A stretch of DNA of 64,000 nt from a virus. Lineage: Duplodnaviria > Heunggongvirae > Uroviricota > Caudoviricetes. The position numbers were made by a program, and so were the translations under genes. The notes beneath the pieces were generated by a model that did not search any database, was not told where the DNA came from, and was given only the letters and a program-made list of their open reading frames with translations. Shown here one piece after another: positions 7,604 through 62,369 of this stretch. Position 1 is the stretch's first letter. Each line of letters starts with the position of its first letter. Location of the stretch: the IMG/VR virus record IMGVR_UViG_3300046542_000361. One strand, 5' to 3'.

Positions 7604-7732
7604 AATACCGATCCCCCAATGAATTAAGGCACCAGTATAAGTCCTGCCGTGAGGTAAGTAAATATTGATTTACCGACGGCTTACCATGGGATCGGCCGGC
7701 CAGAAAGGCGCTGTTACACGCCTATCTTGTGT

Positions 7733-7942
7733 TTATACCGCGATACGTTCGAACTCAGCGTAGACGCCGGTGCCACCGAGCATCGTCGCTTTGCCGTGCT
7801 CCTCGAGGTCGGTGATGAATTGGCCGAGCTCCAAGGGATCGGCGCCGTCCAGGTTGTTGATGAGGACGTCCTTGAGCTCGAAATCACCTTCGAGCTCGCG
7901 CTCGTCGGAGTCGGTGCTGCACCAGAACATTCTGACTATCAT
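7733..7942 (-). CDS. hypothetical small acidic protein
   Basis: ORF track. Confidence 0.45.
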   Translation of the reverse strand: MIVRMFWCSTDSDERELEGDFELKDVLINNLDGADPLELGQFITDLEEHGKATMLGGTGVYAEFERIAV

Positions 7943-7952
7943 GGCGACCTCC

Positions 7953-8378
7953 TTAGTGCTTCGACGCAGCCATCAGCTTGCGAATGACGAATGCCGGCTC
8001 GATCCAGAAATTCTCCGGCAGCTTATCGGTCATCGCCTCTTCGTAGCTCCATGTGTCGAGCTGATCGTCGCCTTCAGCCAGCTTTTCGCAGCTCATCGAG
8101 AAGAGAAACGAGCCGTCGTCCTGCCGCTCAACGTGCAAGCCGACGCCATCGATGCCGAAGTCGCCGATCGCCAGACCGTCTTCGTCCGCATCAAAGCCCC
8201 AGCAGTCGCACATCATGCCTTCGATCATCGTCGCGTGATAGTCGTTGCGCTCGATCTCAACCGCCGCTACGCCGAGCAGAGCGCCAATCTCGCCTGGAAC
8301 AACCAGCTCGATACGAAAACGAGCGCTGCCGCCAAATTCGCAGTTCTTGAAGATTTTGATTTCGTTTGCCGTTATCAT
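7953..8378 (-). CDS. hypothetical protein (about 141 aa from MITANEIKIFKN)
   Basis: Internal ATG at 8378. The track N-terminal extension is Arg/Leu-rich and unlikely to be coding. Confidence 0.5.
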   Translation of the reverse strand: MITANEIKIFKNCEFGGSARFRIELVVPGEIGALLGVAAVEIERNDYHATMIEGMMCDCWGFDADEDGLAIGDFGIDGVGLHVERQDDGSFLFSMSCEKLAEGDDQLDTWSYEEAMTDKLPENFWIEPAFVIRKLMAASKH

Positions 8379-8734
8379 CGCGCTATCTCTTGTTCGTTGC
8401 TGACAAAGAGACAGTAGCAAGCGCGATCGCGGATTACGGCAGGCAGCGAGAGGCACTTGAAGCCCATGGCTGGCCGGGCTATATTGCAGGAGTGTTGGCA
8501 GGAAGCGCGAACCTCCTGCCAACTCTTTACGCTACGCTAGGAATTGCACCCGCACGCTTGCTTGCCAGCTCGTGCGGGTTTTCCTTATCGTGAACGTGAC
8601 GCTAAATGGTATCCACCACATAGCAATCCTCCGTTTCGAGAGCGAGGCACTCGCCAATGCCGATGTAGCCCATCTTCATCAGCGCGCCGGGCTGGCTCCG
8701 GCACTTACTGCTTCCACTCCCGAATCTCTCGATC

Positions 8735-8953
8735 CTATGCCATGCGGATCTTGGTGAACAGGTCGTAGATGCTGTTCCAGATCTCGGTCTGCTCCTCGGA
8801 GCCATCGGCGACCGGCTCAACATCGTGGTTGAGCTCCTGGGCGCGCTGGCCTGCGGCGACAGGATCATTGCCCATCTGCAGAGCGTCGAATATGGCAACG
8901 AGAACGCGCTGCTCGCCCGGCGTGATTGTGATCGTCTTGGTCTTTACGGGCAT
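8735..8953 (-). CDS. hypothetical small protein
   Basis: ORF track. Confidence 0.5.
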   Translation of the reverse strand: MPVKTKTITITPGEQRVLVAIFDALQMGNDPVAAGQRAQELNHDVEPVADGSEEQTEIWNSIYDLFTKIRMA

Positions 8954-9420
8954 GTGGTGATCTCCGATTGTTCATTGATCTCTCTCCGCACCGTCATCAC
9001 AGCGCTCGTGGCTGCGGGATACGGGTCTAGGAGAGGATCGTGAGCAATCAAGCGATGGCTCTCTGTGACAATGCGCGCGCCGGGGCCGTTGGTTTGCGCA
9101 AGGCATACAGATGGATTGGTTTCACCCCGGATCTCTCAACGAGTGGGCGACTATCGGGATACCGGCTCTTATGTCGGCCGGGCTTTCCGTATATGTTGCC
9201 TGCTGCGCTCGAAGTGTCAGTGCATCGAGGCTCGCACCGTTCACAGGCACGGTGAGCTATTTGCGGTCGAGGTAGCTACCCTCATCGTTCACATGGCGAT
9301 CTCACGTTGTCTGCTCTTTCTGCTTTCTCTCTGTCGATGATCTGTTATCGCACGTCAGCGCTTGGGTTGCGGTAGGCAGTGCTCGGCACTGTGTTAACAA
9401 CCTCTTGAAATTTAGGCTTA

Positions 9421-9461
9421 ATGAAACGTTAACGGAAGCGGCTGGAGTCGTCGCTTCCGTT
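9421..9461 (-). terminator. 10-bp perfect hairpin AACGGAAGCG-N11-CGCTTCCGTT downstream of the 9522 gene
   Basis: Read directly. Confidence 0.5.
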
Positions 9462-9521
9462 AGCCATGGGATCCGCGGGCGGCGCGTCTAACCAACGATA
9501 ACTATAGATTATCGATGGTTA

Positions 9522-12489: not shown

Positions 12490-12515
12490 CGTTGACTATG
12501 ATCAATCATAGAACG
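12490..12515 (-). promoter_or_regulatory. motif copy with perfect palindrome CTATGATCAATCATAG, right upstream of the RBS of the 12480 gene
   Basis: Read directly. Confidence 0.5.
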
Positions 12516-14181: not shown

Positions 14182-14405
14182 CAGAAGCTCTCCGGCGTCG
14201 TGTTCATCGTGGTCAGATCAGCCTTCCACCAGGCCTTGAGCCACTCGAAAGCTTCGGGGTGGCTGGACTCGCAGGCAATTTCCATCGCCTGGTAGAGGGT
14301 GTAGCCGGCGTAGGTCGTCTCACCCTTCTCGTTGGTGCCGTTCAGGTCTATGACGACCGGCTCGAACTTCTTTGCTGCGTTCCTGGACATGTGACTGCTC
14401 CTCAA
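14181..14405 (-). CDS. hypothetical small protein
   Basis: The conserved motif lies upstream at 14403-14428. Confidence 0.5.
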   Translation of the reverse strand: MRSSHMSRNAAKKFEPVVIDLNGTNEKGETTYAGYTLYQAMEIACESSHPEAFEWLKAWWKADLTTMNTTPESF

Positions 14406-14457
14406 TCAATGTTGACTTATCAAATGTCGCACATCGCGACAAGGATTCCGGTAGGTT

Positions 14458-16999: not shown

Positions 17000-17072
17000 G
17001 CTGATCTCCTGATAATCAATCAATGTTTATTTATCGCACAGCGCGAGCAGGATTGCGGTAGGATCGCTGCGG

Positions 17073-17321: not shown

Positions 17322-17401
17322 GTGAATCTCCGTCGTTGATCTGCTGATAGCGCCTCGAGCGGTGACGGTCAATCAGTTTTTACTGACCGTCACCGCGAAA
17401 T

Positions 17402-22300: not shown

Positions 22301-22370
22301 GATGGATTTCCTTCTGCTGAAACTTCGAAGCGCCTTATGGGATGCGCCGCGGAGTAAGTCAATAATGATT

Positions 22371-22401
22371 GACCGACGGAGACACGATATCCCCGTCGGT
22401 C
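22371..22401 (-). terminator. hairpin GACCGACGG-N13-CCGTCGGTC downstream of the 22409 gene
   Basis: Read directly. Confidence 0.45.
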
Positions 22402-24463: not shown

Positions 24464-25039
24464 TCAGACGTGAATCCATGTCTTTTCCTCCAAGATATTA
24501 ACGATGGTGGATCGCGCAACGCCGTGCTTCTTCGCCAGCACCGACGGGCTATCTTTCGAGGCGCGGATCTCAATGATCTCCGGCACTGTCAGTTTGGCGT
24601 TCGAATTCTGCGAGCCGCGGCCGGTCTTCAGGCCGTTGGCGTGGGCGTGCTTTTCGTTGTCACGGCCGGTCGACCATTCCAGCTGATATTCGCCCCACTT
24701 CTCGATCAGCTCCTGTGTCGGCTGCTTGAGATAATTGTGGCTCTTGTCGCCGTCGATATGGTTGACCTGCGGCAGGTTGAGCGGGTTCGGCAGGAACGCC
24801 AGCGCGATGACGCGATTGACGAGGACCGACTTCGTGACGCCCTTGAAGGTCAGGTTGAAATAGACTCGGCCGGTCGCCTTGTGCGTCCGGAACTTGACCG
24901 AGTGAACCTCGGCGCTCATGCGCTTGTAGTCAGCAGACGCATACTTGCGACGCCAGATGGTGCCGTCTTCGCGAGCAATGATGTAGCGGCAGGCGATCGC
25001 CTCGAGGATCCACGCGTCTTTTGGGAACTTGTCGGTCAC
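24464..25039 (-). CDS. HNH homing endonuclease (free-standing)
   Basis: VNHIDGDKSHNY HNH motif. GTG start overlaps the upstream stop (GTGA); RBS GAAGGGG. Confidence 0.7.
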   Translation of the reverse strand: MTDKFPKDAWILEAIACRYIIAREDGTIWRRKYASADYKRMSAEVHSVKFRTHKATGRVYFNLTFKGVTKSVLVNRVIALAFLPNPLNLPQVNHIDGDKSHNYLKQPTQELIEKWGEYQLEWSTGRDNEKHAHANGLKTGRGSQNSNAKLTVPEIIEIRASKDSPSVLAKKHGVARSTIVNILEEKTWIHV

Positions 25040-25293
25040 TTTTTCTGCCCCTTCAGCGTGGCGCGCAGTGCGCTGTGCAGGGTCTCGAGCACGCGGCTGT
25101 CGCTTTCGAAGACGAGGCCGGCCGTGATATCCCACATGAGGCTGATGAGGAGGTAGAGCTCCTTGTCGCTGATGACGCCTCGGGTGTGGGCGTCGACGCG
25201 GCGCTTGAGCTCGTGATTGAGCTTGCGGCTCAGCTCCTCGACGTGCGTCGGCCATTCAGCGGCGTCTGGATTGATCGTCGAGGAGACTGTCAT
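25036..25293 (-). CDS. hypothetical protein (from MTVSSTINPD)
   Basis: ATG with RBS GAAAGG. The motif lies upstream at 25306-25337. Confidence 0.5.
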   Translation of the reverse strand: MTVSSTINPDAAEWPTHVEELSRKLNHELKRRVDAHTRGVISDKELYLLISLMWDITAGLVFESDSRVLETLHSALRATLKGQKK

Positions 25294-25330
25294 TTTAGGC
25301 CTTTCATCAATCAATGTTGACTGACTATAA

Positions 25331-25981
25331 TCAAGCTGCGGTTGGAAGTGAAGCGTATTTCACGCGGCGCCGGATGGCATCTTCGTAGGCCTGCAGGAAG
25401 AATTCCTTGGCCTGGAATGCGCCCATCATTTCGATCTCGTAGGGAGCCACCGCGGAATCGTCATGCATCTTGCCGGACTGCCATTCCTCGTTCGGGTCTT
25501 TCGGCACGATCTGCTGGCTCTCGGCCGCGCAGACGGCTTCATCGGCCATCTTCACTTCCCTGGGCAGCGGGAAGGCGAGATTGAAGCGCTTGGCGAAGGT
25601 CTGCTCCCAGCTGAGCTCGATCGGCGCGTAAACGCGATGGACGGTCGGCTCGTGCTTCAACGGGCGGATCATGTCGCCGGTGACGTATTCCGGGCCATCG
25701 TGCAGGAGCGCCTCGAGCTCGTATTCCGGCTTGTGGAGCACGTCGCGCACATAGCGGGCGCAATAGACCGAATGCTCGGCGACCGAGAAGGAGATACGGC
25801 TGCGGAACAGCTTGTGCTGCGTTGCGCCGTTCCAGCGATTGTTGGTCGCCAGGTGATGCGCCACGACCTCGATGTCGATTTCTTCAGGCCGCGGATCGAA
25901 GAGATAGATCTTCTTACCGCTTGCGGAGTGCATGTATTGGCCGCGATTGGCTCGCTGGCCTTGGGCGTTAATCTCGATCAT
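25331..25981 (-). CDS. HD-domain phosphohydrolase (possible nucleotidase)
   Basis: H…HD…D signature: VVAHHLATNNRW … LLHDGPEYVTGD. RBS TAGGAGTG. Confidence 0.6.
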   Translation of the reverse strand: MIEINAQGQRANRGQYMHSASGKKIYLFDPRPEEIDIEVVAHHLATNNRWNGATQHKLFRSRISFSVAEHSVYCARYVRDVLHKPEYELEALLHDGPEYVTGDMIRPLKHEPTVHRVYAPIELSWEQTFAKRFNLAFPLPREVKMADEAVCAAESQQIVPKDPNEEWQSGKMHDDSAVAPYEIEMMGAFQAKEFFLQAYEDAIRRRVKYASLPTAA

Positions 25982-25990
25982 TCGACACTC

Positions 25991-26098: not shown

Positions 26099-26153
26099 GC
26101 TTTCCTCTTGGTTTGAGGACCGGCCCAATTGCCGATCCTCGTGATGCCTGGGA

Positions 26154-27716: not shown

Positions 27717-30091
27717 GCTGCCTCCTTGATGGTGTTGGCTGCGTTGTCGTTGCGAGAAGTCAATTTTGATTTACTACCGGAGCGTTGCAAAAAGCGGATG
27801 AATGCCAGCAACTGCTCCTTCTTCGGTTCGGGGAGAGATTTGCCCTCTTCGATCCATGCGGAGTCGACCAAGACGCCAAGATAGCCGAGCCTCTTGGCGC
27901 AATCCTTTTGGCTGACGAGCAGGTGCTTGAACGTTTCGAGCGCGTTCCGACCAATGAGAGAAATCAGACCGACAGGATGCTCGACACCTTGCCATTCAAG
28001 ACCCTGGCTTCCAGTCGGGAATGTTTCGATGATCTTGATCAGCCGCTTGGCGAGCTTCCAGTTTTCGCCGACCTTGACGCGATCAGGGAAGATGGCCTTG
28101 GCCACATCGATGTGCATTTTCGCCAGATCGACCGCAGTTGCGCCGACAGGCTGGTCAAATCTATCCCTTCGTTCGACGAAGAGCTTGCGGTCGACCATGT
28201 AGCCATATTGGACCTCGCGGCTCTTCACCATCTTCGCAAGGCGTGCGCTCAGCTCCTCGATGATGTTGACGGCGCCGGCTTTGCGCAGCTTCTCTTCCTG
28301 GGCCTTTGTCGTAACGATCGCCACGCCCGGATAGAGATCCTTCAGCGTATAGCGGGCGCTGTAATCGTCGATGCCGACGAGCATCTTGTTGTCGTGCGTT
28401 CTGGCGCGCATGAAGAACTTCGGATTTTGGAGCTCTGGCGCCAGAACGTTTCGATCTTCCATGTAGTTGTCGAGATTGTGGTATTTCTCGTCGTCCGTGT
28501 TCTTGACACGCACGACCTTGGGCTTCTCCCATTCGAAGTCGTAGCTCTCGACCTCGAACTTGAAGGTCTCAGCCATCTTCTCGATGCGCTGGAGCAGATC
28601 CCTTGACGGCTTGGCGCCGACGACAAGGCCGACGAAGAATGACTCGTCGCGATCGGTCGGATCATCCTTCATGCCGACGATCATCGAGGTCAACTCGCGC
28701 CGGTTGGGCGCAACGAAGAGGATTGGCTCGACACTGCCGCTGTTGTTCAAGCCCTCGCGAATGGACGTCATACGCTTGGCACCGCCGAACTCCTCGTTGT
28801 TATCGTAGATCATGGCGCCGTCGAGCAGCTTGAGCTTGGCTGCAAGCTTCACGAAACGCCGGAAGTCGTAGCGCTGCTGCGCGAGGTCGAATGTCAGGCC
28901 CTCCCGGAAGGCTCTTCGGAGCGGCGCGCGCATATCAAAGTGCTTCTTGCGCAGACCGGCAAACAGGTATTTTCGGCGCAGGTTAAGCGGCAGGCGATCA
29001 GGCTTGCACTTGACCGCGTAGGCGGCAATCTCTTGCGGATCAATGACGATCAAGCCTTCGAGCCGCGGCGGATAGACGGAAAGAATGTTTTTCTCGTTCG
29101 GACTGGTTAGGTCATGCTTTTCGGCAAGGAGCGTGACGAACTTTTTGCCGGCGCCCGGAATTGCGGCCTCGATAACGTTGGTCGCGCGTTTCAGCAGCTT
29201 GAGAACCGTCGCCATCGTTAACTCGGTGTAGTTGAGGGATTCACGGCTCGGCGTGACGCCGATGCTGTTTGGAGGAGCGATGAGCACCAGCTTGTAGCCT
29301 TCGCCGATCAGGCTTGCTGCCTTCTTTGCGGCCTCATAGACATGCGTGTCGGTCGTCGTCACCGGATAGAGCACTGTGCCATAGAGCAGATAGACGGCTG
29401 ACTCGTGCATTCCCGAGTGAGCAATTGTGCAGAAACCCTGCTTGCGCGCCGGCGTGTAATCGACGCGCCGCAATTCTTCGCCGTTCAGCTTGACGAGCAT
29501 ACCGCCCTGATAGGCGACGCTGCGAATGATCTGGGACAGCTCATATCGATCGCTCTTGTCGCGCAGCGGGATCGTGACGGTGACGCCGGTCTCGTCGGTC
29601 GGAAGATTTTCGACCATCGGTCGGATCTCGGGGCGACCTTCAGTCGACGCGCCGCCTTTGCTGAGTGCATAGACGTTGCGCAGGCCGGCGTTTCGGCTAT
29701 CGACCGTGAAGTGGTCTGTGTAGGCGAAGGGCGACTTGGAACCGAGGCCAAAACCACCTGTCTGATTTGCGTCCTTGACCTTCGTCGATGCGCCATAGAC
29801 GCAGTAGATGTGGTCGATCAAGCGGTCGGGAATACCAGGGCCGAAATCCTTGAAGATGATCTCGTCGTCCGTCAGGCTGATTTCAACGTGCTTATCGGTG
29901 CAGCCGCCCATGATATGCGCGTCCCAGCCGTTGCAGATGACTTCGCGGATCATGGCGCGCTTGCCGTCGCGATAGATCGCCGAGGACAGCATTCCATAGA
30001 ACTCAACCGAATCCGCTATGCCGAACGATCGAGCCACACCACCGCCAATAACGGCGTGCGTGTCGACCTCTTTAACGTGCGATACCTGCAT
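27713..30091 (-). CDS. GHKL / Hsp90-like ATPase, rIIA-like (putative)
   Basis: Bergerat-fold motifs: N-box REVICNGWDAH, G1 KDFGPGIP, G2 TGGFGLGSKSPFAYTDHFTVDS. 792 aa. RBS AAAGGAAG. Confidence 0.55.
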   Translation of the reverse strand: MQVSHVKEVDTHAVIGGGVARSFGIADSVEFYGMLSSAIYRDGKRAMIREVICNGWDAHIMGGCTDKHVEISLTDDEIIFKDFGPGIPDRLIDHIYCVYGASTKVKDANQTGGFGLGSKSPFAYTDHFTVDSRNAGLRNVYALSKGGASTEGRPEIRPMVENLPTDETGVTVTIPLRDKSDRYELSQIIRSVAYQGGMLVKLNGEELRRVDYTPARKQGFCTIAHSGMHESAVYLLYGTVLYPVTTTDTHVYEAAKKAASLIGEGYKLVLIAPPNSIGVTPSRESLNYTELTMATVLKLLKRATNVIEAAIPGAGKKFVTLLAEKHDLTSPNEKNILSVYPPRLEGLIVIDPQEIAAYAVKCKPDRLPLNLRRKYLFAGLRKKHFDMRAPLRRAFREGLTFDLAQQRYDFRRFVKLAAKLKLLDGAMIYDNNEEFGGAKRMTSIREGLNNSGSVEPILFVAPNRRELTSMIVGMKDDPTDRDESFFVGLVVGAKPSRDLLQRIEKMAETFKFEVESYDFEWEKPKVVRVKNTDDEKYHNLDNYMEDRNVLAPELQNPKFFMRARTHDNKMLVGIDDYSARYTLKDLYPGVAIVTTKAQEEKLRKAGAVNIIEELSARLAKMVKSREVQYGYMVDRKLFVERRDRFDQPVGATAVDLAKMHIDVAKAIFPDRVKVGENWKLAKRLIKIIETFPTGSQGLEWQGVEHPVGLISLIGRNALETFKHLLVSQKDCAKRLGYLGVLVDSAWIEEGKSLPEPKKEQLLAFIRFLQRSGSKSKLTSRNDNAANTIKEAA

Positions 30092-30124
30092 TTCTGTCTT
30101 CCTTTCGTGTCGACCGTTGTTCGA

Positions 30125-30146
30125 TCAATCAATATTTACTGAATAG
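30125..30146 (-). promoter_or_regulatory. conserved operon-upstream motif copy (CAATCAATATTTACTGAATAGC) about 35 nt upstream of the rIIA-like gene start
   Basis: One of about 20 related copies; see findings. Confidence 0.5.
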
Positions 30147-31500: not shown

Positions 31501-31530
31501 AGACTAGTCAATCAATGTTTATTGACTAGT
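31501..31530 (-). promoter_or_regulatory. motif copy with perfect 10-bp dyad GACTAGTCAA-tcaatgttta-TTGACTAGTC
   Basis: Between the SPFH gene end and the start of the 31479 gene. Confidence 0.5.
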
Positions 31531-34548: not shown

Positions 34549-34641
34549 GCTGTCTCCTCAATCAATGTTGACTTATGGTTGAAAAGGGATGATCGGTGTG
34601 AGCCGACTTTCAGCAGCGATTACGCTCTAACTGTCATCCAT

Positions 34642-34742: not shown

Positions 34743-34924
34743 CCGGGCTTATTTTCTGACGATCCCGGCTCGTCTTGGTTAATCAATTTGGACTGTTTCC
34801 GACGATCACTTAGATGAGCTTCATTGGCACCTCGTCGTTCGTTTTGCTGCGCTTGCGTTCAATCAACATTTACTTACTAGCAAGCGCAGCGATGGGACTC
34901 AAGTGAGAAAATAGAGAATCTGCA

Positions 34925-37563: not shown

Positions 37564-37597
37564 AATTTACTCCTGATTTTCGAAAGGCACCTATGCT

Positions 37598-37623
37598 AAA
37601 TCAATATTGATTGACTGCATAGG
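37598..37623 (-). promoter_or_regulatory. conserved motif copy (AAATCAATATTGATTGACTGCATAGG) upstream of nrdJ
   Basis: Dyad ATCAAT-ATTG-ATTGA. Confidence 0.5.
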
Positions 37624-38720: not shown

Positions 38721-38732
38721 TCATTCCTCGTG

Positions 38733-38774
38733 AGTCAATTTTTACTGACTGCTGAATAGTCAGTTTGGCCTTGG
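38733..38774 (-). promoter_or_regulatory. conserved motif copy (AGTCAATTTTTACTGACTGCTGAATAGTCAGTTTGG), about 12 nt from the RBS of the 38217 gene
   Basis: Both modules present (TTTACTGAC core and GAATAGTCAGTTT). Confidence 0.5.
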
Positions 38775-42959: not shown

Positions 42960-43024
42960 GATGTTCTTTCCTGCGTGATTTCAATGACTTGATAGACGAT
43001 AGCGCGTCAAAACATGGGTTGCTA

Positions 43025-44116
43025 TCAGGCGTCTTCAGTCACCGCTCTGGCAGCATCGAGCACTTCGGCGCATTCGCGCTTCAGCCGCTCGCGATCGACC
43101 AGCGCCGAGATATCCTTCGCGTCATCGATGAAGTGGGCGACGGACTCGTCGACAGTGACGGTGCCGGCCTTCGGCGTGCCGGTGCGCGCTGTTGCCGCGA
43201 TCTTCTTCGGCGCCATGATGACGACGCCCATTGCGCCGGAGTCCTCGAGGAACTTGCGCAGCTCGGCGATCTCGGCCGAGGTCATTTCCGGGCCGGAGAA
43301 GCGGACATAGTTGCCGTCGGCTGCAAGCGCCATGTCGGTTTCGTCGAGTCCGCTGACATCGACGAAGCGCGGCGCATGGGTCGCATGGAACTCGATCTTG
43401 CCGTCGTCCTGGACGACCATGAAGCCAGCCTTGGTGCCGACGTCGTTCCAGCGCTGATGTGTGGTCGCGCCGATCGACCAGACACCAGGCACAACCTGCT
43501 TGTGATTGTGATAGTCGCCGGCAAAGACGTTGCGGAAGCCGAAGTCTGCCAACATTTCGCCGGTGAGACCGTGTGGCGGGGTGCCGATCAGGACGCCATC
43601 GATACCTGCATGAATGAAGACGTCGATACGCTCAAAAGCGGCGTGCCCTGTCAGCTTCTCGAGATCAGCCATCAGAAGCTCGGTCGTCATGCGATAGGGC
43701 ACAAAGCCGAGCAGGTGGTTGCCGCGGTAGACATGCCGCGCTTCGTTGATGACGTGGAAAGTGCCGTGATCGCTCTTGGTCTGGCTGAGCGTCTCGATGG
43801 CATTACCAAGCTGCGTCGTATCCTTACCGGCCAGGTCGTGATTACCTGGGATCGCGTAGATATCGAGCCCGCTGTCGAGGATCTCTTTGATGACGGCCTG
43901 CAGCGGGTTGAGCACTTCGGGATCAATCGAGCCGCGAACGTGCAGAATGTCGCCGGCGCAGACGATGAATTCAGCGCCAATGCTCTTGGCGTGACGAGCC
44001 GCGCGCAGCAGCTCGTCGAGGGTGATCCGCAGGCGGCCGTTGACGCCATCGACCGTGAACGTCGAGAACGTCGACCATTTATGGCAGTGAAGGTCTGAAA
44101 TGATGACGTAGCTCAT
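43025..44116 (-). CDS. sbcD: SbcD / Mre11-like nuclease (gp47-like)
   Basis: Calcineurin-like phosphoesterase motifs DLH, GDILH, GNHD. 363 aa from MSYVIISDLH. Confidence 0.85.
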   Translation of the reverse strand: MSYVIISDLHCHKWSTFSTFTVDGVNGRLRITLDELLRAARHAKSIGAEFIVCAGDILHVRGSIDPEVLNPLQAVIKEILDSGLDIYAIPGNHDLAGKDTTQLGNAIETLSQTKSDHGTFHVINEARHVYRGNHLLGFVPYRMTTELLMADLEKLTGHAAFERIDVFIHAGIDGVLIGTPPHGLTGEMLADFGFRNVFAGDYHNHKQVVPGVWSIGATTHQRWNDVGTKAGFMVVQDDGKIEFHATHAPRFVDVSGLDETDMALAADGNYVRFSGPEMTSAEIAELRKFLEDSGAMGVVIMAPKKIAATARTGTPKAGTVTVDESVAHFIDDAKDISALVDRERLKRECAEVLDAARAVTEDA

Positions 44117-44289
44117 GCGCTCTTTTCCCCCGTGATTGCTTCGACTACCCAACGCAGGACGGTGAGGCTTGCGGCAAAGATGACCACGCCGGCATCCCCT
44201 CGGTTTGCGGCCCAGGCGACAGGCGCCACATTTACGATCGCACTGGCGACACCGAGCGCGCCGGCCGCTGAAATAATGCGGTTAAACAT
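44113..44289 (-). CDS. small two-TM membrane protein, 58 aa
   Basis: Not in the ORF track. RBS AGGAGAA. Stop overlaps the sbcD ATG (ATGA). Two motif copies lie upstream at 44304-44379. Confidence 0.5.
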   Translation of the reverse strand: MFNRIISAAGALGVASAIVNVAPVAWAANRGDAGVVIFAASLTVLRWVVEAITGEKSA

Positions 44290-44303
44290 AAAGTTCTCCT
44301 GTA

Positions 44304-44379
44304 AGTCATTATTGACTGACTAGCGTTTGAATAGCGCGTCGCACAACGGGAAGCAATCAATATTTACTGACTATTTGAC
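44304..44379 (-). promoter_or_regulatory. two tandem motif copies upstream of the small membrane gene / sbcD operon
   Basis: AGTCATTATTGACTGACTAGCGTTTGAATAGC and CAATCAATATTTACTGACTATTTGAC. Confidence 0.5.
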
Positions 44380-44414
44380 GGAAAGATGAAGCCGCCCGAA
44401 GGCGGCTCACAGTC

Positions 44415-44825
44415 TCAGAAAACTTCGTGCAGGGCGTCGATGATAACCCACGGCGACAATGCCTCATGCATGTCGTCCAGGCGAATCCAGCGAATTTTGT
44501 TATTCTCGCTAGCGTAGATGTAGCCGGTTAGTTCCTCGTCTCCTGCAACGAAGACAGCGCCCTCGATAACAATGCTGCCGGACACATTCTGTGCGCGTTT
44601 GAGAGTGTCGACCAAATCCTTCCCGTTATCACCGTCCTGTTTTGGCTCGAAATCGCTGATAGCGTGCTTGCCGATATGCGTGGCGTAGCAGGCCTGCGCG
44701 AGTGTCACCGCGGTCTTCCAATCTTCAGCCACGATATGCAAATCTTGATCGTGACCGGTCTTTTCCTGTGCAAACGGATCTCGCACCGGGGTGCCAGCGG
44801 GAATGCTAATTGTGAATGCCTTCAA
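44415..44825 (-). CDS. hypothetical protein (TTG start)
   Basis: RBS GAAGGAAGAAAG in front of the TTG. Confidence 0.5.
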   Translation of the reverse strand: MKAFTISIPAGTPVRDPFAQEKTGHDQDLHIVAEDWKTAVTLAQACYATHIGKHAISDFEPKQDGDNGKDLVDTLKRAQNVSGSIVIEGAVFVAGDEELTGYIYASENNKIRWIRLDDMHEALSPWVIIDALHEVF

Positions 44826-44860
44826 AGCTTTCTTCCTTCTGAAATAGCGATTTCTACCTA

Positions 44861-45258
44861 TTAGCGAATTTTCGTGGCGCCGGGAATGTGGGTAAAATAT
44901 TTAATCGGCAGATAGCGCTGCGCGGCGCCGCCTCGGCGCTCAAAATTCAGGAACTTGGTCTTCTTGCTGTCAAAGAAGTTTTCGAGGCGGGTGATGTAGA
45001 TGTCGTTGTTCTGCTTTACGCGAACGCCGACCCAGACGATTTTCATCAGCCGCAGCTCGGTGATGGTTTCCTCGTCCAGCGCCCAGGATGCGAGATCCTT
45101 GCGCAGTGCATCCGAATTGCACTTCTCGCCGAACCGGAAGATCTGATCGAGCTTCCGGGCGGCGAGGTAAACGTTCCTATTCGCAAAGTGATAGATGTGG
45201 CCGTAGATCCGACGCCCTCTGCGGACGACCGTTGTTGGCACCTTGGGCTTGCGCGCCA
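44861..45258 (-). CDS. hypothetical basic protein
   Basis: ATG with RBS GGAAAGG. Overlaps the 3' end of the ASCH gene in another frame. Confidence 0.4.
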
Positions 45259-46890: not shown

Positions 46891-47436
46891 CTATTCGTCG
46901 ATGAAGTCTGCACCGTCATCCTCAGATGACGTATCTGTCGGGCCAAGGTCGTCGTCTAAGTCATTATTGACTGACTGCGTCGGACGCGGAATCGCGGCCT
47001 TGGCCTGCTTGGTAAGGCGCCCGCCAATGGCTTGCGCCAGGGATCGGCCGTCCATATTCGAGGCGTCGATCGGCCCGGCCGGAACGACGGGCGCGGACAG
47101 CGGCTGCGGGATCAAACCCTTCGGAACGAGGTATTCATTAACACCACCTCCGACGTAGACCTTGAGAAGCTCCGTAGCCGGCAGCTCGACGCTGTCGAGC
47201 GAGAACTCGCCGTTCGTCGCCCTGGCAACGTCACGCACCACGTCGATCTTCTCCCAGATCTTGCCGATCGTGCTGTCGAGGAAGAACCGCGCCCGGTGGT
47301 AGTCTTCCTTGCTGATCTCGTGGCCGTGCTTTTCAGCCACGCGCAGCAGATCGCCGTAAGCTTTGCCGATCTTGCCGATCGCCTGCTCGAGCGCCCGCTT
47401 CGGTTCGCTCTTGGCGGGGTTTGCTTCAGTTTGCAT
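46891..47436 (-). CDS. hypothetical protein with an acidic C-terminal tail (…DDDLGPTDTSSEDDGADFIDE); possible recombination mediator or SSB partner
   Basis: Position between the FEN/SSB genes and recA. The acidic tail resembles SSB-type interaction tails. A motif copy is embedded in its 3' coding end at 46958-46979. Confidence 0.5.
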   Translation of the reverse strand: MQTEANPAKSEPKRALEQAIGKIGKAYGDLLRVAEKHGHEISKEDYHRARFFLDSTIGKIWEKIDVVRDVARATNGEFSLDSVELPATELLKVYVGGGVNEYLVPKGLIPQPLSAPVVPAGPIDASNMDGRSLAQAIGGRLTKQAKAAIPRPTQSVNNDLDDDLGPTDTSSEDDGADFIDE

Positions 47437-49671: not shown

Positions 49672-49804
49672 TTCGAGTTTTTCCTTTTCGAGGCTGTGAG
49701 CTTGGTGCTTTGTCGGTTCGTGCTTGCTATTAGCTAAATCGCTAAATCGCTAAGTAAGAATAGACAGTTTGCGGTCGGGTTGCGTGAGAAAAATCGAGGA
49801 TTTT

Positions 49805-50075: not shown

Positions 50076-50110
50076 TGAGTCAGTCAATTTTGACTGACTG
50101 TTGAATAGAC
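50076..50110 (-). promoter_or_regulatory. conserved motif copy: perfect dyad GTCAGTCAA-TT-TTGACTGAC plus TGAATAG module
   Basis: Upstream of the 49805 gene. Confidence 0.5.
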
Positions 50111-54389: not shown

Positions 54390-54919
54390 CAACCTCTCCT
54401 CAGTGTGACCAGGCCGTCGATATTGTCGACAGCGCCAATGTGTGTGAGCGCCTGGATCGTCATGCGCGCGTGACTGTCTGCCGTGCCTTCGGTCCAGCCG
54501 AGCTTCGTCGTGAAAGCATAGGCGAGCGTGTGCCGATCGAGCGGCTGGCGCATCTTGAGCAGCAGGTGCCCGGCGATCTTCAGGAAGCTCGACGAACCGG
54601 CGAACGGGTTGACGCCTTTGGCGAAGTTTTCGGTGACGCGCAGATTGGAGCTGTCGAGCTTCTCGACCAGCGCCATGACCTTCTTCGGCACCGTCAGTTC
54701 GGCGGGATGCGCCGCTGGCTTTTCAGCGAGCGGGTTCTTGGCTTTCTTCGAGCCCTTGCCTGTCACGCCGACGCGCTCTCGAAGGATCTCGAGATTGGCG
54801 AAATGCAGCGGCCGGCAGGTCTCGGCGAACTTGCAGACCGCGCACACCGGCGCCGTCTCTTCAAATGCAAGTGCAGAGCCAAAGCAGCCAGGCGCAAATG
54901 ACGGGATAATGACGTTCAT
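54389..54919 (-). CDS. hypothetical protein with Cys-rich N-terminus
   Basis: RBS AAAGGA. ATGA-coupled to the sigma factor gene. Confidence 0.5.
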   Translation of the reverse strand: MNVIIPSFAPGCFGSALAFEETAPVCAVCKFAETCRPLHFANLEILRERVGVTGKGSKKAKNPLAEKPAAHPAELTVPKKVMALVEKLDSSNLRVTENFAKGVNPFAGSSSFLKIAGHLLLKMRQPLDRHTLAYAFTTKLGWTEGTADSHARMTIQALTHIGAVDNIDGLVTLRRG

Positions 54920-55548
54920 GCGGCAGTCCTTTGAACCTTCTCGGAGAGCGTGCGCAGCTCGGCGAGGATCTTCGTGCGTTCCGGGCGGTCGGCGTCCATC
55001 AGGCGAAACACGAAGGACGTCGTTATGTGGCTGATCAGAATGTTCTGCGCGCCGATCGACTTGGCGTATTCGGCGCGCGCCTTCAGCAAGCGCATCTGCT
55101 CCAAGAGTTCGGGCGGCTGCTCATAGAGGAGCTTCAAAAACAGCGCGCTGCGTTCGCTCAGCCGCCGCAGCGCCCATGCGATGTGTGTCGCTTCATCCAC
55201 CTGCGCATCCGGCGAGGGCTCGCTCGAAGGCATCAGGTCGACCAGCTTGTCGTTTTCGTCGCTATTGCCGACGGGCGCGTCGAGCCGCTGGGCGCGCTCC
55301 TCGCCGATCCGCTTGAACATCTTGCGATTGATCTCGAGCTTGGAGCGGCGAATACCCTCGATCAGATACGCGTTGAAGGGCACGCCGAGCATCGGATCGA
55401 ACGTGTCGCGTGCGCGGCACCAGACGAGCCAAAGCTCTTGCTCGACGTCATCATGGCTAAGCGATGTTGCGCCGTTGCCATGAAGCTTCCTTGCGATCGA
55501 CCAGGACAGACGCCGGATCAGCTCGACGCTCTCCTTATGGTCAATCAT
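54916..55548 (-). CDS. sigma-70 family (ECF-like) RNA polymerase sigma factor
   Basis: Region-2-like DVEQELWLVWCRARDTFDP…FNAYLIEGIRRS and a C-terminal region-4-like helix. 210 aa. Confidence 0.6.
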   Translation of the reverse strand: MIDHKESVELIRRLSWSIARKLHGNGATSLSHDDVEQELWLVWCRARDTFDPMLGVPFNAYLIEGIRRSKLEINRKMFKRIGEERAQRLDAPVGNSDENDKLVDLMPSSEPSPDAQVDEATHIAWALRRLSERSALFLKLLYEQPPELLEQMRLLKARAEYAKSIGAQNILISHITTSFVFRLMDADRPERTKILAELRTLSEKVQRTAA

Positions 55549-56807: not shown

Positions 56808-56845
56808 TAAAATCTCCGTTCGATGTTGCGATCTGTCGTCGCGTT

Positions 56846-56914
56846 CAATCAATATTTACTTACTAACAAGCGTAGCGATGGGATGCAATCAGTTTTTACT
56901 GACCGACTGCATTA
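56846..56914 (-). promoter_or_regulatory. two tandem motif copies upstream of the CobS-like gene; the first is a ~40-nt element near-identical to 34858-34897
   Basis: CAATCAATATTTACTTACTAACAAGCGTAGCGATGGGA then CAATCAGTTTTTACTGACCGACTGCATTA. Confidence 0.5.
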
Positions 56915-59442: not shown

Positions 59443-59484
59443 TTCGCACTCCGTTAAATCAATTTTGATTGATTATTTATCGCA

Positions 59485-59715
59485 TCAAAAATCTTGGATC
59501 ACAAACGGGAAGAGCAGGAGCCCTTGTCCGACTGCAGGGATGATGATGTGGATATTGCCGTGTTCGGGGTGCGTGCCGGTGAAGACGGTCACGCCCTCCT
59601 TGTCCGTTCGCACGCAATTCACCAATGACGCGCCCTCTGCCCAGGCAAGGTCGAAAGGAATCTCCTTGACGGCGCCGAGGTGGGTCTTGGTGGTTGCCTG
59701 CTGTTGCTTCTGCAT
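59485..59715 (-). CDS. hypothetical small protein
   Basis: Motif copies lie at 59455-59483 and 59745-59764. Confidence 0.45.
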   Translation of the reverse strand: MQKQQQATTKTHLGAVKEIPFDLAWAEGASLVNCVRTDKEGVTVFTGTHPEHGNIHIIIPAVGQGLLLFPFVIQDF

Positions 59716-59781
59716 GATGCGTCCTTTGTCATGTCAACACCGATCAGTCAATATTTACTGATGGAGCTAGAGAAAGAAAAA

Positions 59782-59807
59782 GCGATCCGGGGCCTATTCC
59801 GGATCGC
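59782..59807 (-). terminator. rho-independent terminator GCGATCCGG-N8-CCGGATCGC followed by TTTTTCTTTCT on the minus strand
   Basis: Immediately after the regulator gene stop. Confidence 0.65.
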
Positions 59808-59833: not shown

Positions 59834-60238
59834 TTATTTCGCGAAGGCCTCGGTGACGGCAGCGCGCTGCCGGTCGTTGATCTTCGGATCGCTGTTGCCG
59901 GAAGCCTCGCGGACAATACCGAGGATTTCGACTTCGTTTTCAGTGCAGATGAATTCCAGCATCCTCGCGGTTGTCTCGTCCTCGGGCATGAACTGCTCGA
60001 GCGCCATCCGGAAGAGGAACATCGGATCCACGCCGATCGCACGGGCGAGCGGAACGACGCGGTCAAGCGGCAGCTTGGCGTCGCCCTTCTTGATCATCGT
60101 AACCATGTTCGACTGGGTCCAGCCGGCCGCCTGGGCGATTTCGCGGTGGGATCGGTTGACCACTTGGTCGATATGCTTGTCGAGAAAACGCGCAACCTTC
60201 GTGTTAGCGTAGGGGCGAACGTAAGTTGTAGTGGACAT
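59834..60238 (-). CDS. XRE-family helix-turn-helix transcriptional regulator (repressor-like)
   Basis: HTH …SHREIAQAAGWTQSNMVTMIKKG… Strong RBS AAGGAAGAAGGG. Upstream of it is the AT-rich region. Confidence 0.65.
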   Translation of the reverse strand: MSTTTYVRPYANTKVARFLDKHIDQVVNRSHREIAQAAGWTQSNMVTMIKKGDAKLPLDRVVPLARAIGVDPMFLFRMALEQFMPEDETTARMLEFICTENEVEILGIVREASGNSDPKINDRQRAAVTEAFAK

Positions 60239-60239
60239 T

Positions 60240-60600
60240 TAATAATAACCCTTCTTCCTTGACCTTTGTTTTACTTGTCACTAACAGCGTTTTCTTGTTT
60301 TCTGCTTTAGTGAATAGCGCATCGGTCTTGGGGTGCAACGATTTCTTTTGGCAAAATTTAGGGCAGTAAGTCAATACCGATTTACCCACAAAATGCAGTC
60401 AATTCCATTTTGCCGCACCGAAACGCAAGGAATCGCGGGGGAAACGGTGCGAAAAGAAATTTTTCAAGTGGTGATTTTTAGGGAGTTGACGCGAGTTCCA
60501 TAAGGTCTGTTATGCGACTTTTACGGGCTTGGCTGAAAACTGTAACCAAGGATAGATTTTTCTTGGGGTTTTATCCCACTACCGAATCGTGGCATCGCTG
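60240..60600. promoter_or_regulatory. AT-rich origin-like region with inverted repeats (GGCAAAAT…ATTTTGCC; CGCACCG…CGGTGCG) and a DnaA-box-like TTTACCCACA
   Basis: The lowest-GC stretch of the window, between the divergent regulator gene and the RHH / Rep genes. Confidence 0.45.
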
Positions 60601-60605
60601 GTAAT

Positions 60606-60842
60606 ATGACGCTGGTTCGAAGTGAGTCTCTAGCCATGAACGTTGAAACAAATGCTAACGCGCGTGCCGCAACCAAGTATCGGGAGAAGCGAGAGGCGGC
60701 CGGCGAGCGCCAGGTCACCGTTTGGCTTGCTCCCTGTGCGCAGTTGAAGGTCGACGAAATGATGTCAGCCGGTGGGTTTAAGAACCGGTCGGATTTGATC
60801 GCCCGCGCGATCCAGGAATTTGAATTGAACAAAGGAAACTAA
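60606..60842 (+). CDS. ribbon-helix-helix (CopG-like) DNA-binding protein
   Basis: …KYREKREAAGERQVTVWL… is typical of RHH plasmid/phage regulators. ATG at 60606 or 60636. Confidence 0.5.
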   Translation: MTLVRSESLAMNVETNANARAATKYREKREAAGERQVTVWLAPCAQLKVDEMMSAGGFKNRSDLIARAIQEFELNKGN

Positions 60843-61011
60843 ACTCGGCAAAGCAAAAGGCCCCAGGACGCCAATCCCAGAGCCTTTTTATTCTAAGCGA
60901 CTACGGATCGCCTCGTTTTGACACCTTGGTTATCCCGAATCATCGCTCGATTGTCAACATTTCTTTCGGGAGTGTTCGGCGAAGCTTTGCCCTTGGATAC
61001 AAGGGAAACCA

Positions 61012-62118
61012 ATGGGAGCGCAGTCATCCGGCTGGCGTGGATTAAGTCCGACACTTTCGGTCGGCCAAGATCTCGACAGCGCCGAAAAGCAAGACCTCTT
61101 CGACACGGCCAGAATGGCAGCTCGAGTCCTTGGGTTGCCGCCGACGGCGCGGTTCGTCCTCGACCAGCTCTGCGGCGTTTATAACGGCGAACCGATCGAA
61201 GGTCGAATCCTTGTCTGGCCGTCAAACGAGTTCATCGGCGAGCGCACTGGCATTCCGGAGCGGTCCATCAGGTTCGCGCTCGCCCGTCTGATCGAGGAGG
61301 GCGTGATCATCTCCAAGGATTCGCCGAACGGCAAGCGGTTTGCGCAGCGCTCGCCATCCGGCCAGATCATCCGTGCCTTCGGTTTCGACCTCTCCCCTCT
61401 CCTTGCGCGCCGGCCGGAGTTTGTCGCCAGGCTCGCGGCGCTCAAGGAATTGGAGCGTGAGCGGAGCGTTGCCTTCGACGAGCTGGTCATTCACCGGCGT
61501 TCGGCCCAGGAAGCTCTCAGGACGCTTGCAGAGGTTTACCCGAGCGTCGACATAGCTGATCTGACGGCGCGCGCCCTGGAGCTCATGCGCGTCACACCGC
61601 GCAGGTCCGGTGCGGGATCAGCCGACCCTTTCCGCGGGCAGTGGCAAGCACTCAGAGAAGAGGCAGAATCCAGATATTATACCGCCTCTGCCGGCAATAA
61701 CTGCCGTCACAAAGACAGCAACAAATATGCCCCTGACCAGTCTTGTGACAACGGCTCTGAAGATGTGCAGGAGGCGCCGGCGCAGCGGACGGATCTGCGC
61801 GACCTGAAGATGGCTTGCCTTGATGCGATGGAATTCATGGGTGAGATCCGGCACGACCTCGAGCTTGTCGCGGCTGCCGGGCGAATGCGGGGCTCGTTCG
61901 GCGTGTCAGTGTCGGCCTGGGAGGAGGCCAGGCGCGAAATCGGCCCGGTGCCGGCTGCCGCGACCCTGGTGTGGGTCATCCAGATGCAGGCGCGGCCAGC
62001 TGCCGGCGCCGAGCAGATCAAGAATTTCGGTGGTTACTTCCGGGCGATGTGCCGGTTGGTCCGCGACGGCCGCGTCAACCTCGATGAAGAGATCCAAAAG
62101 CTCAGGCGACGACAATAA
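61012..62118 (+). CDS. replication initiator-like protein with winged HTH (RepC / RP-C-like, putative)
   Basis: wHTH SNEFIGERTGIPERSIRFALARLIEEGVI. 368 aa. RBS AAGGGAAA. One of only three plus-strand genes. Confidence 0.45.
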   Translation: MGAQSSGWRGLSPTLSVGQDLDSAEKQDLFDTARMAARVLGLPPTARFVLDQLCGVYNGEPIEGRILVWPSNEFIGERTGIPERSIRFALARLIEEGVIISKDSPNGKRFAQRSPSGQIIRAFGFDLSPLLARRPEFVARLAALKELERERSVAFDELVIHRRSAQEALRTLAEVYPSVDIADLTARALELMRVTPRRSGAGSADPFRGQWQALREEAESRYYTASAGNNCRHKDSNKYAPDQSCDNGSEDVQEAPAQRTDLRDLKMACLDAMEFMGEIRHDLELVAAAGRMRGSFGVSVSAWEEARREIGPVPAAATLVWVIQMQARPAAGAEQIKNFGGYFRAMCRLVRDGRVNLDEEIQKLRRRQ

Positions 62119-62146
62119 AAAAAAGGGCAGCCCGCGAGAGCTGCCC
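62117..62146 (-). terminator. rho-independent terminator (GGGCAGC tctcgcg GCTGCCC followed by TTTTTTTT on the minus strand)
   Basis: Stops the minus-strand ligase operon before it collides with the plus-strand rep gene. Confidence 0.7.
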
Positions 62147-62213
62147 AGTTGGAAAGGAGACACACAATGACGGAACGGATGGAACGTCGCTGTGATTATA
62201 GAATAGTCAGTTT

Positions 62214-62369
62214 TTACTCGGCTTTTCGAAAAATCTCGAAGTTTTTCGAGACGGGAATTGGTCGAGCCACGCAATACCAGTTCATGTCGTAGCCAAATTT
62301 CTTGGCCGCGTCATAAAGGCTTCTGGAAAGGATGACGCGATCGGTGCCGTCTGGCGCCTTTGTCGTCAT
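62214..62369 (-). CDS. hypothetical small protein, 51 aa
   Basis: Not in the ORF track. ATG overlaps the ligase stop (ATGA). Confidence 0.4.
   Translation of the reverse strand: MTTKAPDGTDRVILSRSLYDAAKKFGYDMNWYCVARPIPVSKNFEIFRKAE

Follow-up and report, generated by a model that had tools for sequence, protein, structure and literature searches.

The 64,000-nucleotide (nt) stretch of viral DNA analysed here (IMGVR_UViG_3300046542_000361; hereafter the window) carries a two-fold-symmetric 19-bp motif that recurs approximately every 3 kb upstream of genes on the minus strand. We consider it probable, though well short of certain, that the copies of this motif are dispersed operators of the element's own lysogeny repressor, most likely the XRE/Cro-type helix-turn-helix protein of 134 amino acids (aa) encoded on the minus strand at 59834..60238.

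The minus strand holds nearly all of the window's genes. Rhizobium phage RHEph10 (115 kb) is a close relative, with approximately 90% identity over a 10.5-kb test stretch, and phages B1VFA, V1VFA-S and RHph_X66 are more distant ones. Pfam identified in the window a DnaE-type polymerase, CobT- and CobS-like proteins, an SbcC-like ATPase, a class II ribonucleotide reductase and a short sigma factor at 54916..55548. RHEph10-like phages encode repC, parA and parB, and the near relatives of the window are resident circular plasmids: the window XRE protein is found on a 117.5-kb contig, and near-identical proteins are found on 116-119-kb replicons of Rhizobium, Ensifer and Pararhizobium isolates. 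A plasmid resident in Rhizobium shares 93-94.5% identity with B1VFA (PMC12509600), and pLM21S1 of Sinorhizobium is a plasmid-like prophage akin to RHEph10 (PMC4447125). Since partition and repC genes are present in this group and its near relatives live as plasmids, the window is part of a phage-plasmid, RHEph10-like and approximately 115-118 kb in size. Searched by tblastn, the XRE protein matched 945 plasmid records, mostly non-mobilizable, and the Acinetobacter records among the matches listed are 80-118 kb long.

A symmetric motif ahead of minus-strand genes

Read on the coding (minus) strand, the consensus of the motif is G-T-M-A-R-T-M-A-A-N-A-T-T-G-A-Y-T-K-A, which can also be written G-TMARTMAA-NN-TTGAYTKA to bring out its two-fold symmetry. 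A position weight matrix scored 22 sites in the window at 22.8-34 bits and no unrelated position above 12 bits; the matrix was derived from the copies themselves and is therefore circular for those members. Second-order Markov shuffles of the window gave 0.03 matches at 15 bits or more, and a matrix-free skeleton, T.A.T.A-N4-T.A.T.A with at most one mismatch, was matched 30 times against 4.6 expected. After masking of the motif, no other over-represented word in the window was comparable. The original prediction had reported a recurrent element of this kind, and with essentially no copy expected by chance that report is borne out; 20 of the 23 positions it gave are true copies, those at 12490, 49753 and 62199 do not hold the core motif, and two copies (27756-27774 and 60367-60385) had been overlooked.

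It can be seen that 21 of the window copies precede a minus-strand ATG by 9-128 nt (median approximately 31 nt), the copy at 34859 having no assigned gene. The motif had been described as marking minus-strand operon starts, 12-35 nt before the start codon and at times overlapping the ribosome-binding site. The position upstream of minus-strand start codons holds, but the distances are wider than those given, no copy overlaps a Shine-Dalgarno sequence, and some copies lie inside 3' coding ends or within apparent operons. That several copies are perfect palindromes was likewise overstated, since the two 8-bp arms match perfectly in a single copy (50080-50098) and with one mismatch in five. The half bearing TTGA is gene-proximal 10:1 in the window, and the distal half tolerates TTTA.

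Intergenic enrichment, which had been suggested as a check, was measured on the annotated relative RHEph10 and was strong: 34 of the 39 copies in that genome fall in the 8.2% of it that is intergenic (binomial P = 4e-32). Thirty-six of these sites lie 9-129 nt upstream of the next start codon, and sites occur in 30 of the 72 gaps of at least 31 nt and in none of the 98 shorter gaps. The orientation preferred by the matrix agrees with that of the downstream gene at 28 of the 39 sites, whereas B1VFA-type sites show no usable asymmetry. Every module of RHEph10 (packaging, head, tail, lysis, replication, nucleotide metabolism and partition) contains copies, and portal, tape-measure, tail and lysis genes are among those preceded by one. 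The motif thus spans the genome, reaching structural genes that lie beyond the window, and is not restricted to the early region.

A palindrome in a 5' leader might act not as a protein site but as a hairpin in RNA or single-stranded DNA, through termination, RNase cleavage or control of translation of the downstream gene. We therefore asked whether the two arms co-vary. Mirror positions 3/18 and 7/14 are complementary in 47% and 51%, respectively, of 43 unique sites (Fisher P = 0.54 and 1.0), and only six of the 43 are fully pairable. The arms thus vary independently, from which it follows that the symmetry is that of a protein dimer and not that of a hairpin. Most RHEph10-type copies carry one to four mismatches in eight pairs, their stems would be AT-rich around a 2-nt centre, and Rfam found no match anywhere in the window. 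GC-rich flanking stems do extend approximately 13% of sites, and flank pairing is slightly above that of mismatched controls (Mann-Whitney P = 0.01), but most copies have no such stem, and for this reason a larger hairpin was rejected as a general property of the motif. In two cases, the 31508 copy of the window and its RHEph10 counterpart at 63890, the motif is built into an intrinsic terminator, and the stems of the two phages are different; a T-tract, however, follows only one or two copies, and in the window the 31508 copy alone. Taken together, these results make a hairpin function very improbable.

The architecture of the motif is instead that of two 8-bp half-sites (TMARTMAA and its complement) set 2 bp apart and 10 bp centre to centre, an 8-2-8 arrangement kept in all lineages examined. 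Half-sites one helical turn apart are the classical geometry of helix-turn-helix dimers, as in the operators of 434, lambda and the C proteins. The motif therefore has the properties of an operator, namely symmetric half-sites at a fixed spacing that are conserved as sequence and not as base pairs.

The candidate binder and its co-variation with the motif

Comparison with related phages, also proposed at the outset, showed the same skeleton in the same placement in every related phage-plasmid examined, with bases that are specific to each lineage. B1VFA, V1VFA-S and pLM21S1 share TAAGTAAG-NN-CTTACTTA, as does a Shinella plasmid in which the right half is looser. The motif is TCAGTCAG-NN-CTGACTGA in Methylobacterium pAMS5a and TAAGTCAG-NN-CTGACTTA in an M. 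oryzae plasmid, and that of Pararhizobium plasmid p5 is identical to the RHEph10 motif. Further afield, Acinetobacter ZW85p2 has WARTAAG-NN-CTTAYTW (eight exact copies against 0.03 expected), the E. coli phage-plasmid Cyrano has TARGTAR-N4-YTACYTA, and Salmonella phage SSU5 has TARGTAAG-NN-CTTACYTA, in 11 copies at gene junctions against 0.03 expected. Since these lineage-specific variants cross host classes, a host factor is unlikely to be the binder, and none of the host sites considered (CtrA TTAA-N7-TTAA, IHF WATCAA-N4-TTR and the alpha-proteobacterial LexA direct repeat) fits the consensus.

XRE homologues are present in all of the motif-bearing relatives named above except SSU5. The window protein matches PHROG transcriptional-regulator families (E = 6.5e-5), and the orthologue in B1VFA, with 40% identity to it, reaches 30.1 bits (E = 4.8e-7) against Pfam HTH_3, for which the cut-off is 23 bits. 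An AlphaFold model of the window protein, with a predicted local distance difference test score (pLDDT) of approximately 90 over residues 11-80, the N-terminal domain, predicts a five-helix fold of Cro/C1 type. Its best matches in the PDB are C.BclI, C.AhdI, HigA, ClgR and 434 Cro (template-modelling scores of 0.6-0.77 on the target, probability approximately 1.0), with Foldseek E-values that are weak (0.01-0.1) and sequence identities of 12-25%. These modelled likenesses are to dimers whose targets are inverted repeats.

In seven lineages besides that of the window, variants of the motif are accompanied by changes in the first residues of the XRE recognition helix. It starts with Trp-Thr-Gln-Ser in the RHEph10 group, where the inner half-site unit is T-A/C-A-A. 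The starts Tyr-Ser-Asn-Pro (B1VFA), Phe-Lys-Asn-Gln (LM21) and Phe-Asn-Asn-Ala (Shinella) go with TAAG, Tyr-Lys-Asn-Ala (Cyrano) goes with TARG, mostly TAAG, and Tyr-Glu-Arg-Pro (pAMS5a) and Tyr-Asp-Lys-Pro (M. oryzae) go with TCAG. The third residue thus tracks the inner unit, Asn being paired with TAAG and Arg or Lys with TCAG, which places a G on the other strand; Gln at this position is found with A or C in the RHEph10 group and with A in Acinetobacter. Such pairings are the usual ones between amino acids and bases: A is faced by Asn or Gln, and a G on the opposite strand by Arg or Lys.

A blind test of this code on the protein P0017, with a Trp-Ser-Asn helix, failed, since that copy proved to be an orphan remnant truncated by an insertion sequence, with only its own upstream site left. 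A Cereibacter plasmid with an XRE homologue is not a phage-plasmid and was set aside, and a search with a four-sequence XRE alignment returned mainly chromosomal Rhodobacterales XRE genes outside phage-plasmids, which are unusable for motif analysis. A metagenomic contig (L037; 9855-9872 and 10440-10480) carries an orphan XRE homologue that is 60% identical, with its upstream operator, a CTATCT box and its terminator intact; the downstream operator is halved beside a transposase gene, pointing to a phage-plasmid remnant.

We next weighed as the true binder another DNA-binding protein of the element, unrecognised or encoded beyond the window, such as the ParB-like protein, the TerS-like helix-turn-helix protein or a small gp042-like protein, with the XRE protein controlling its own neighbourhood only. 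Conservation of ParB-like and TerS-like proteins extends across the whole SSU5-like group, and KorB, the ParB homologue of IncP plasmids, uses dispersed palindromic operators. Pseudomonas phage nickie, however, has both proteins and no motif. This lytic phage is syntenic with RHEph10 (helicase, ParB-like, methyltransferase, TerS-like and TerL, then ligase, CobT, CobS and DnaE), and its ParB-like protein is approximately 40% identical; its 100 kb hold nine matches to the skeleton against 10.65 expected, and no recurrent palindrome. This excludes both the TerS-like and the ParB-like protein as the binder. Other words are over-represented in nickie, among them GCAATCGCCC (five copies against 0.08 expected) and TGTGGGACG (five against 0.13), and the phage may use a different repeated regulatory element.

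Two further candidates were rejected. The ribbon-helix-helix (RHH) protein encoded upstream of repC shows just 21% identity between RHEph10 and Pararhizobium p5, although the two have the same motif and XRE proteins that are 77% identical. The gp042-like protein has no DNA-binding fold, its model of one helix and four strands giving no DNA-binding match among PDB structures. The residues of the XRE helix shift with the half-site bases in a chemically sensible manner. The screen for DNA-binding domains covered part of the proteins of the approximately 115-kb genome, and SSU5 keeps its sites without an XRE gene; both facts leave some room for another binder, which we nevertheless consider unlikely.

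The exception of SSU5 was examined more closely. The XRE gene was not found in SSU5 by tblastn with four queries, though sites are present. The tRNA-CobT junction of SSU5 is 99.2% identical over the adjoining 1.3 kb, on one side only, to Enterobacter plasmid pMB2617_2, which holds approximately 6.7 kb extra at this point (SSU5 L039 42600-42760 against L041 1400-8160). The missing segment encodes phoH, a glutaredoxin, a YafO toxin, an integrase, the XRE protein (66% identical to the Cyrano homologue) and a small downstream gene. SSU5 therefore looks like a recent repressor-deleted lytic derivative, in which persistence of the sites is less telling for another binder. Because SSU5 grows lytically without it, the XRE protein cannot be an essential activator, which fits a repressor. 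A parallel is offered by D29, which according to PMC5712189 is a repressor-deletion derivative of an L5-like phage. In the Cyrano lysogen, expression of the XRE homologue CYRAN_45 exceeds the local background 10-fold, and PMC9928086 lists the protein as the putative master repressor.

The original prediction had named the XRE protein as the candidate for a dimeric regulator. This suggestion is supported by dyad symmetry without arm covariation, the 10-bp half-site spacing, the co-variation of the helix, the predicted fold and the sites that flank the XRE gene in every lineage examined. On this basis we infer that the protein binds the sites, that the effect is repression and that its role is to maintain lysogeny.

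Several observations weigh against this proposal. Sites in RHEph10 also precede parB and the parA operon, genes that one would expect to be active in the plasmid-prophage state. The TTGA/TTTA half bias of the RHEph10 group is not accounted for by a simple symmetric operator; selection against antisense, -35-like TTGAC may lie behind it. Nickie lacks not only the XRE gene but also those for sigma, RepC, the RHH protein and the gp042-like protein, so that absence of the motif there is not specific to XRE, and with sites persisting in SSU5 the correlation of presence and absence is imperfect. The alpha-proteobacterial XRE gene is co-directional with the early operon, unlike the divergent arrangement of classical immunity regions. 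The window protein itself scores 14.8 bits against Pfam HTH_3, below the cut-off, and the co-variation of helix and half-site was read post hoc across approximately six independent lineages.

Individual copies, the CTATTC box and the XRE locus

All window copies lie on the minus strand. The nearest of all to a start codon is that at 34558..34576, 9 nt upstream of ATG 34548, and short distances are also found at 38731..38749 (10 nt from ATG 38720), 14402..14420 (ATAAGTCAACATTGATTGA; 11 nt from ATG 14390, where it abuts a GGAG Shine-Dalgarno sequence), 44302..44320 (12 nt from ATG 44289), 59455..59473 (12 nt from the CobT-like ATG 59442, filling most of a 42-nt intergenic gap), 25307..25325 (13 nt from ATG 25293) and 17016..17034 (16 nt from ATG 16999). 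The copy with perfect 8+8 arms, GTCAGTCAAAATTGACTGA at 50080..50098, lies 23 nt upstream of ATG 50056. The terminator copy at 31508..31526, 28 nt upstream of ATG 31479, forms the top of a hairpin at 31497-31533 that is followed by TTTTT. Next come the copies at 59744..59762 (28 nt from ATG 59715), 30125..30143 (33 nt from ATG 30091) and 37597..37615 (33 nt from ATG 37563, the start of the class II ribonucleotide reductase gene).

Longer distances are seen for the copies at 56845..56863 (37 nt from the CobS-like ATG 56807), 27756..27774 (39 nt from ATG 27716, within the 3' end of a 792-aa gene), 17369..17387 (47 nt from ATG 17321, enclosed by a 9-bp GC-rich flanking stem) and 22355..22373 (54 nt from ATG 22300). 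The copy GTAAATCAATATTTACTTA at 7655..7673, 51 nt upstream of ATG 7603, is the sole window copy with its TTGA half gene-distal. The copy at 46957..46975 lies in the 3' coding end of the gene 46891..47436, 75 nt upstream of the recA-like ATG 46881. Two copies are the upstream members of tandem pairs, at 44353..44371 (with 44302) and at 56885..56903, 21 nt from the 56845 copy. The weakest copy (60367..60385; 22.8 bits, centre CGGT, right half GTTGACTTA) lies 128 nt upstream of the XRE ATG.

The remaining copy, at 34859..34877, sits inside an 11-bp flanking stem and is followed by approximately 280 nt (34577-34858), between two motif copies, without a called gene. ARAGORN and Rfam are silent there, as they are for tRNA or Rfam RNA in the whole window. 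The matching region of RHEph10 has an annotated tRNA-Cys, the 3' end of which overlaps a motif copy.

The three positions that were not confirmed are of different kinds. Near 12490 there is a different palindrome of 7-2-7 form, CTATGATTGATCATAG at 12496-12511, which scores below 8 bits and lies 15 nt upstream of ATG 12480; the RHEph10 gap that apparently matches it (84088-84183) has no motif site. At 62199 there is a degenerate three-quarter site, and at 49753 a CTATTC box with a lone half-site. Beside these last, at 49733-49763 (plus-strand coordinates), are the direct repeats GCTAAATC, GCTAAATC and GCTAAGT, the half-site being CTTACTTA-like; the repeats lie upstream of an SSB-like gene and are iteron-like in look.

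A second module, TGAATAG, had been said often to follow the motif. On the coding strand this is CTATTCA, and it is a strongly strand-biased box, CTATTC occurring 17 times in sense and three times in antisense orientation in the window; four of the sense copies lie 3-14 nt upstream of a motif start (P = 6e-6). Eight sense copies are in non-coding DNA upstream of genes, their contexts having been read by hand. The boxes at 38754-38759 and 50103-50108 each end 4 nt upstream of a motif copy, that at 30141-30146 is overlapped by the left end of the 30125 copy, and that at 44329-44334 lies between the members of a tandem pair. The position of such boxes just upstream of motif starts places the operator at the predicted transcription start. 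In both tandem pairs (44353/44302 and 56885/56845) the upstream copy is at a would-be -35 position, which for the CTATTC box of the first pair is taken by the half-site TTGATTGC. In addition, a word TTTTCGAAA or GATTTTTCG recurs on the minus strand near CTATTC boxes or motif copies (at approximately 37575, 38790, 49790, 50115 and 62225), twice at 18 nt upstream of the box; it could serve as a -35 or UP-like element or be bound by a different regulator.

These arrangements bear on a further explanation, in which the motif itself serves as a phage-specific promoter, or as the core of one, read through the sigma factor at 54916..55548 or a MotA-like activator, with transcripts starting a few nt downstream. 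Copies that stay at least 9 nt from the start codon and never cover a Shine-Dalgarno sequence would suit such a role, but 19 bp is too short for a -35 and a -10 at normal spacing. The TTGAYT half was considered as a -35 and rejected: no -10-like hexamer was found by eye 17 nt after it in the copies inspected, and from the close copies transcripts would start inside the gene. A scan of window positions 25001-45000 gave no enrichment of E. coli-type sigma-70 promoters (three against 5.1 expected), and some copies have a terminator directly upstream of or embracing them that leaves no room for another promoter; four copies, on the other hand, lie just downstream of the separate, -10-like CTATTC box. 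The TTGA half faces the gene 10:1 in the RHEph10 group, whereas B1VFA-type copies are symmetric over both arms and hence directionless. Neither the central 2 bp nor the flanks are conserved between lineages, the centre being fixed as AT in one and a variable GC in others, which together with the symmetry argues against a directional promoter.

The sigma factor itself can be separated from the motif. No sigma homologue was found in enterobacterial SSU5-like phage records by tblastn with rhizobial and Acinetobacter sigma queries, and SSU5 and Cyrano have no sigma gene at the syntenic position between CobS and DnaE, yet both have the motif. The motif is thus uncoupled from sigma. With symmetric sites, no -35/-10 geometry and motif-bearing relatives in which no sigma is detectable, the promoter class or MotA box entertained by the original prediction is disfavoured, and we judge it improbable.

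The XRE gene forms a monocistronic unit in seven alpha-proteobacterial lineages, in the order weak motif copy (approximately 120-130 nt upstream), GCTAT(A/T) box, XRE gene, terminator, 18-20 nt, motif copy and next gene, and the layout of XRE gene, terminator and operator is kept in all seven although the intergenic DNA is otherwise unalignable. In the window the box is CTATTC at 60312..60317 (minus strand), the probable -10 of the XRE promoter. It reads GCTAT(A/T) in all alpha-proteobacterial lineages examined and resembles the rhizobial -10 consensus, CTATAT, of Sinorhizobium and Rhizobium promoters. The unit is closed by an intrinsic terminator, GCGATCCGG...CCGGATCGC then TTTTTCTTTCT, at 59771..59807 on the minus strand, and the 59744 copy starts 18-20 nt past it. 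The right half GTTGACTTA of the weak upstream copy is the same in all alpha-proteobacterial lineages examined, even those with TAAG sites. In Acinetobacter, Cyrano and the Enterobacter plasmid the XRE gene is instead divergent from the early operon, with sites in between. Given the terminator before it, the early operon (gp042-like, CobT, CobS, sigma, DnaE onward) must be re-initiated at this point, and the operator overlaps the promoter predicted there.

Two other features of the locus were recorded. Between the RHH-repC operon and the XRE gene, at 60495-60515 on the minus strand, lies a near-invariant element, GCATAAG-N5-(C/A)TTATGGAAC, that is present in all alpha-proteobacterial lineages whatever their motif variant, is palindromic (CATAAG/CTTATG) and ends in GGAAC. 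It may serve as an RHH operator, be an element of replication or act as a promoter read by the phage sigma factor. In these lineages the XRE gene is followed by the small gp042-like gene (window 59485-59715), whose 76-aa product has an invariant G-x-H-P-E-H-G-N-I-H...I-P and matches nothing in Pfam, PHROG or the PDB. Its gene lies where one for a Cro or antirepressor would be, and there is a possible gamma-proteobacterial counterpart at 13-20% identity. Elsewhere in the window, the class II ribonucleotide reductase, a single-chain enzyme of B12-dependent type (35143-37563), stands where RHEph10 has class Ia alpha and beta subunits (L002 7454-10113), a module swap between phages that are otherwise approximately 90% identical.

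Under the repressor proposal, the XRE protein would be made in the plasmid-prophage state from its own monocistronic unit, with its CTATTC -10 promoter and its own terminator, and would occupy approximately 40 operators genome-wide, so that lytic and replication genes are shut off one operon at a time. Some of the sites would place it over the transcription start, the operator lying a few nt past a CTATTC -10 or 18-20 nt past a terminator, and at sites within operons it would probably act as a roadblock to read-through.

Relation to known operator systems

Neither the motif nor targets of the regulator were described in the genome papers of RHEph10 relatives that we consulted (including PMC12509600 and PMC4447125), in a phage-plasmid survey or in a 2024 review, a coverage that is incomplete and leaves a prior description possible. 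Literature searches with motif strings returned only primers and unrelated matches, and searches for SSU5 with operator or lysogeny topics returned nothing relevant. For the SSU5 and Acinetobacter (AB) group, no lysis-lysogeny regulator is named in the 2024 review, whose subject is regulation in phage-plasmids.

SSU5 and AB phage-plasmids are common in clinical Enterobacteriaceae, Acinetobacter and rhizobia. If the proposal is right, it identifies the master regulator of these elements, with a full list of targets in each genome and a simple recognition code, and makes the sequence sufficient to tell temperate elements from lytic derivatives that have lost the repressor by deletion. Operator networks of genome-wide reach, of which P1 and the Cluster A mycobacteriophages have so far been the best-known cases, would then have a symmetric, XRE-based form in Proteobacteria as well. 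The sites are also of use in annotation, since they mark boundaries of transcription units where host-type promoters are hard to see. In its most general form, which we advance tentatively and at somewhat less than even odds, the proposal is that one small XRE-type dimer silences a phage-plasmid of approximately 115 kb through some 40 symmetric operators before about a quarter of its genes, some of them promoter operators and many of them roadblocks within operons. This would be a proteobacterial counterpart of the stoperators, with a readable recognition code, spanning SSU5-like phage-plasmids from rhizobia to Acinetobacter, Klebsiella, E. coli, Salmonella and Yersinia, and it would account for the origin of lytic isolates such as SSU5 through deletion of the repressor.

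P1 C1 is an immunity repressor of a phage-plasmid with many scattered operators, and the present sites resemble its operators in being spread round the genome and not confined to one immunity region. The 17-bp operators of P1 are asymmetric and overlap promoters, C1 has no sequence relationship to XRE proteins, and the late structural operons of P1 are not directly controlled by C1; the sites described here, unlike those of P1, also precede portal, tape-measure, tail and lysis genes. In structure, the modelled XRE protein comes nearest to restriction-modification controller (C) proteins (C.BclI, C.AhdI and C.Esp1396I) and to 434 Cro; these and proteins of 434 Cro/cI type are small helix-turn-helix dimers whose operators are inverted repeats with half-sites approximately one turn apart. 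These proteins act at one or a few operators beside their own genes, whereas approximately 40 sites per genome are implied here.

Among mycobacteriophages, the start-associated sequences of Cluster K are, as cited in PMC4351075, short conserved sequences tightly tied to the initiation codon. The present motif, like them, recurs just upstream of starts, but it does so at 9-128 nt and is symmetric. Closest in form are the dyad repeats of Cluster O, where more than 30 copies of the 17-bp repeat TGTTCGG-N3-CCGAACA, many of them intergenic or near 5' ends and without clear orientation, are of unexplained function (PMC4351075). One third of those repeats lie inside genes, their arms are invariant, the phages are not evidently temperate and no binder has been proposed (PMC4351075). 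Sequence and host phylum differ from the present case, in which a candidate binder co-varies with the motif.

There is a parallel in distribution with the stoperators of Cluster A mycobacteriophages (L5 gp71; TipsytheTRex), which likewise number tens of sites genome-wide, mostly in short intergenic gaps within and between operons and including those of structural genes. Stoperators are described in PMC9283540 as asymmetric sites of 13 bp, strictly oriented with transcription and recognised by a two-domain repressor that acts as a monomer. The sites of the window and its relatives differ in being dyad-symmetric, in having a small XRE-type protein as candidate binder and in showing an orientation bias in one lineage only, and a block to elongation is here a predicted mode of action. 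D29 is related to L5 in the way that SSU5 is to its plasmid relatives: in each case a lytic isolate from which the repressor has been deleted keeps its sites.

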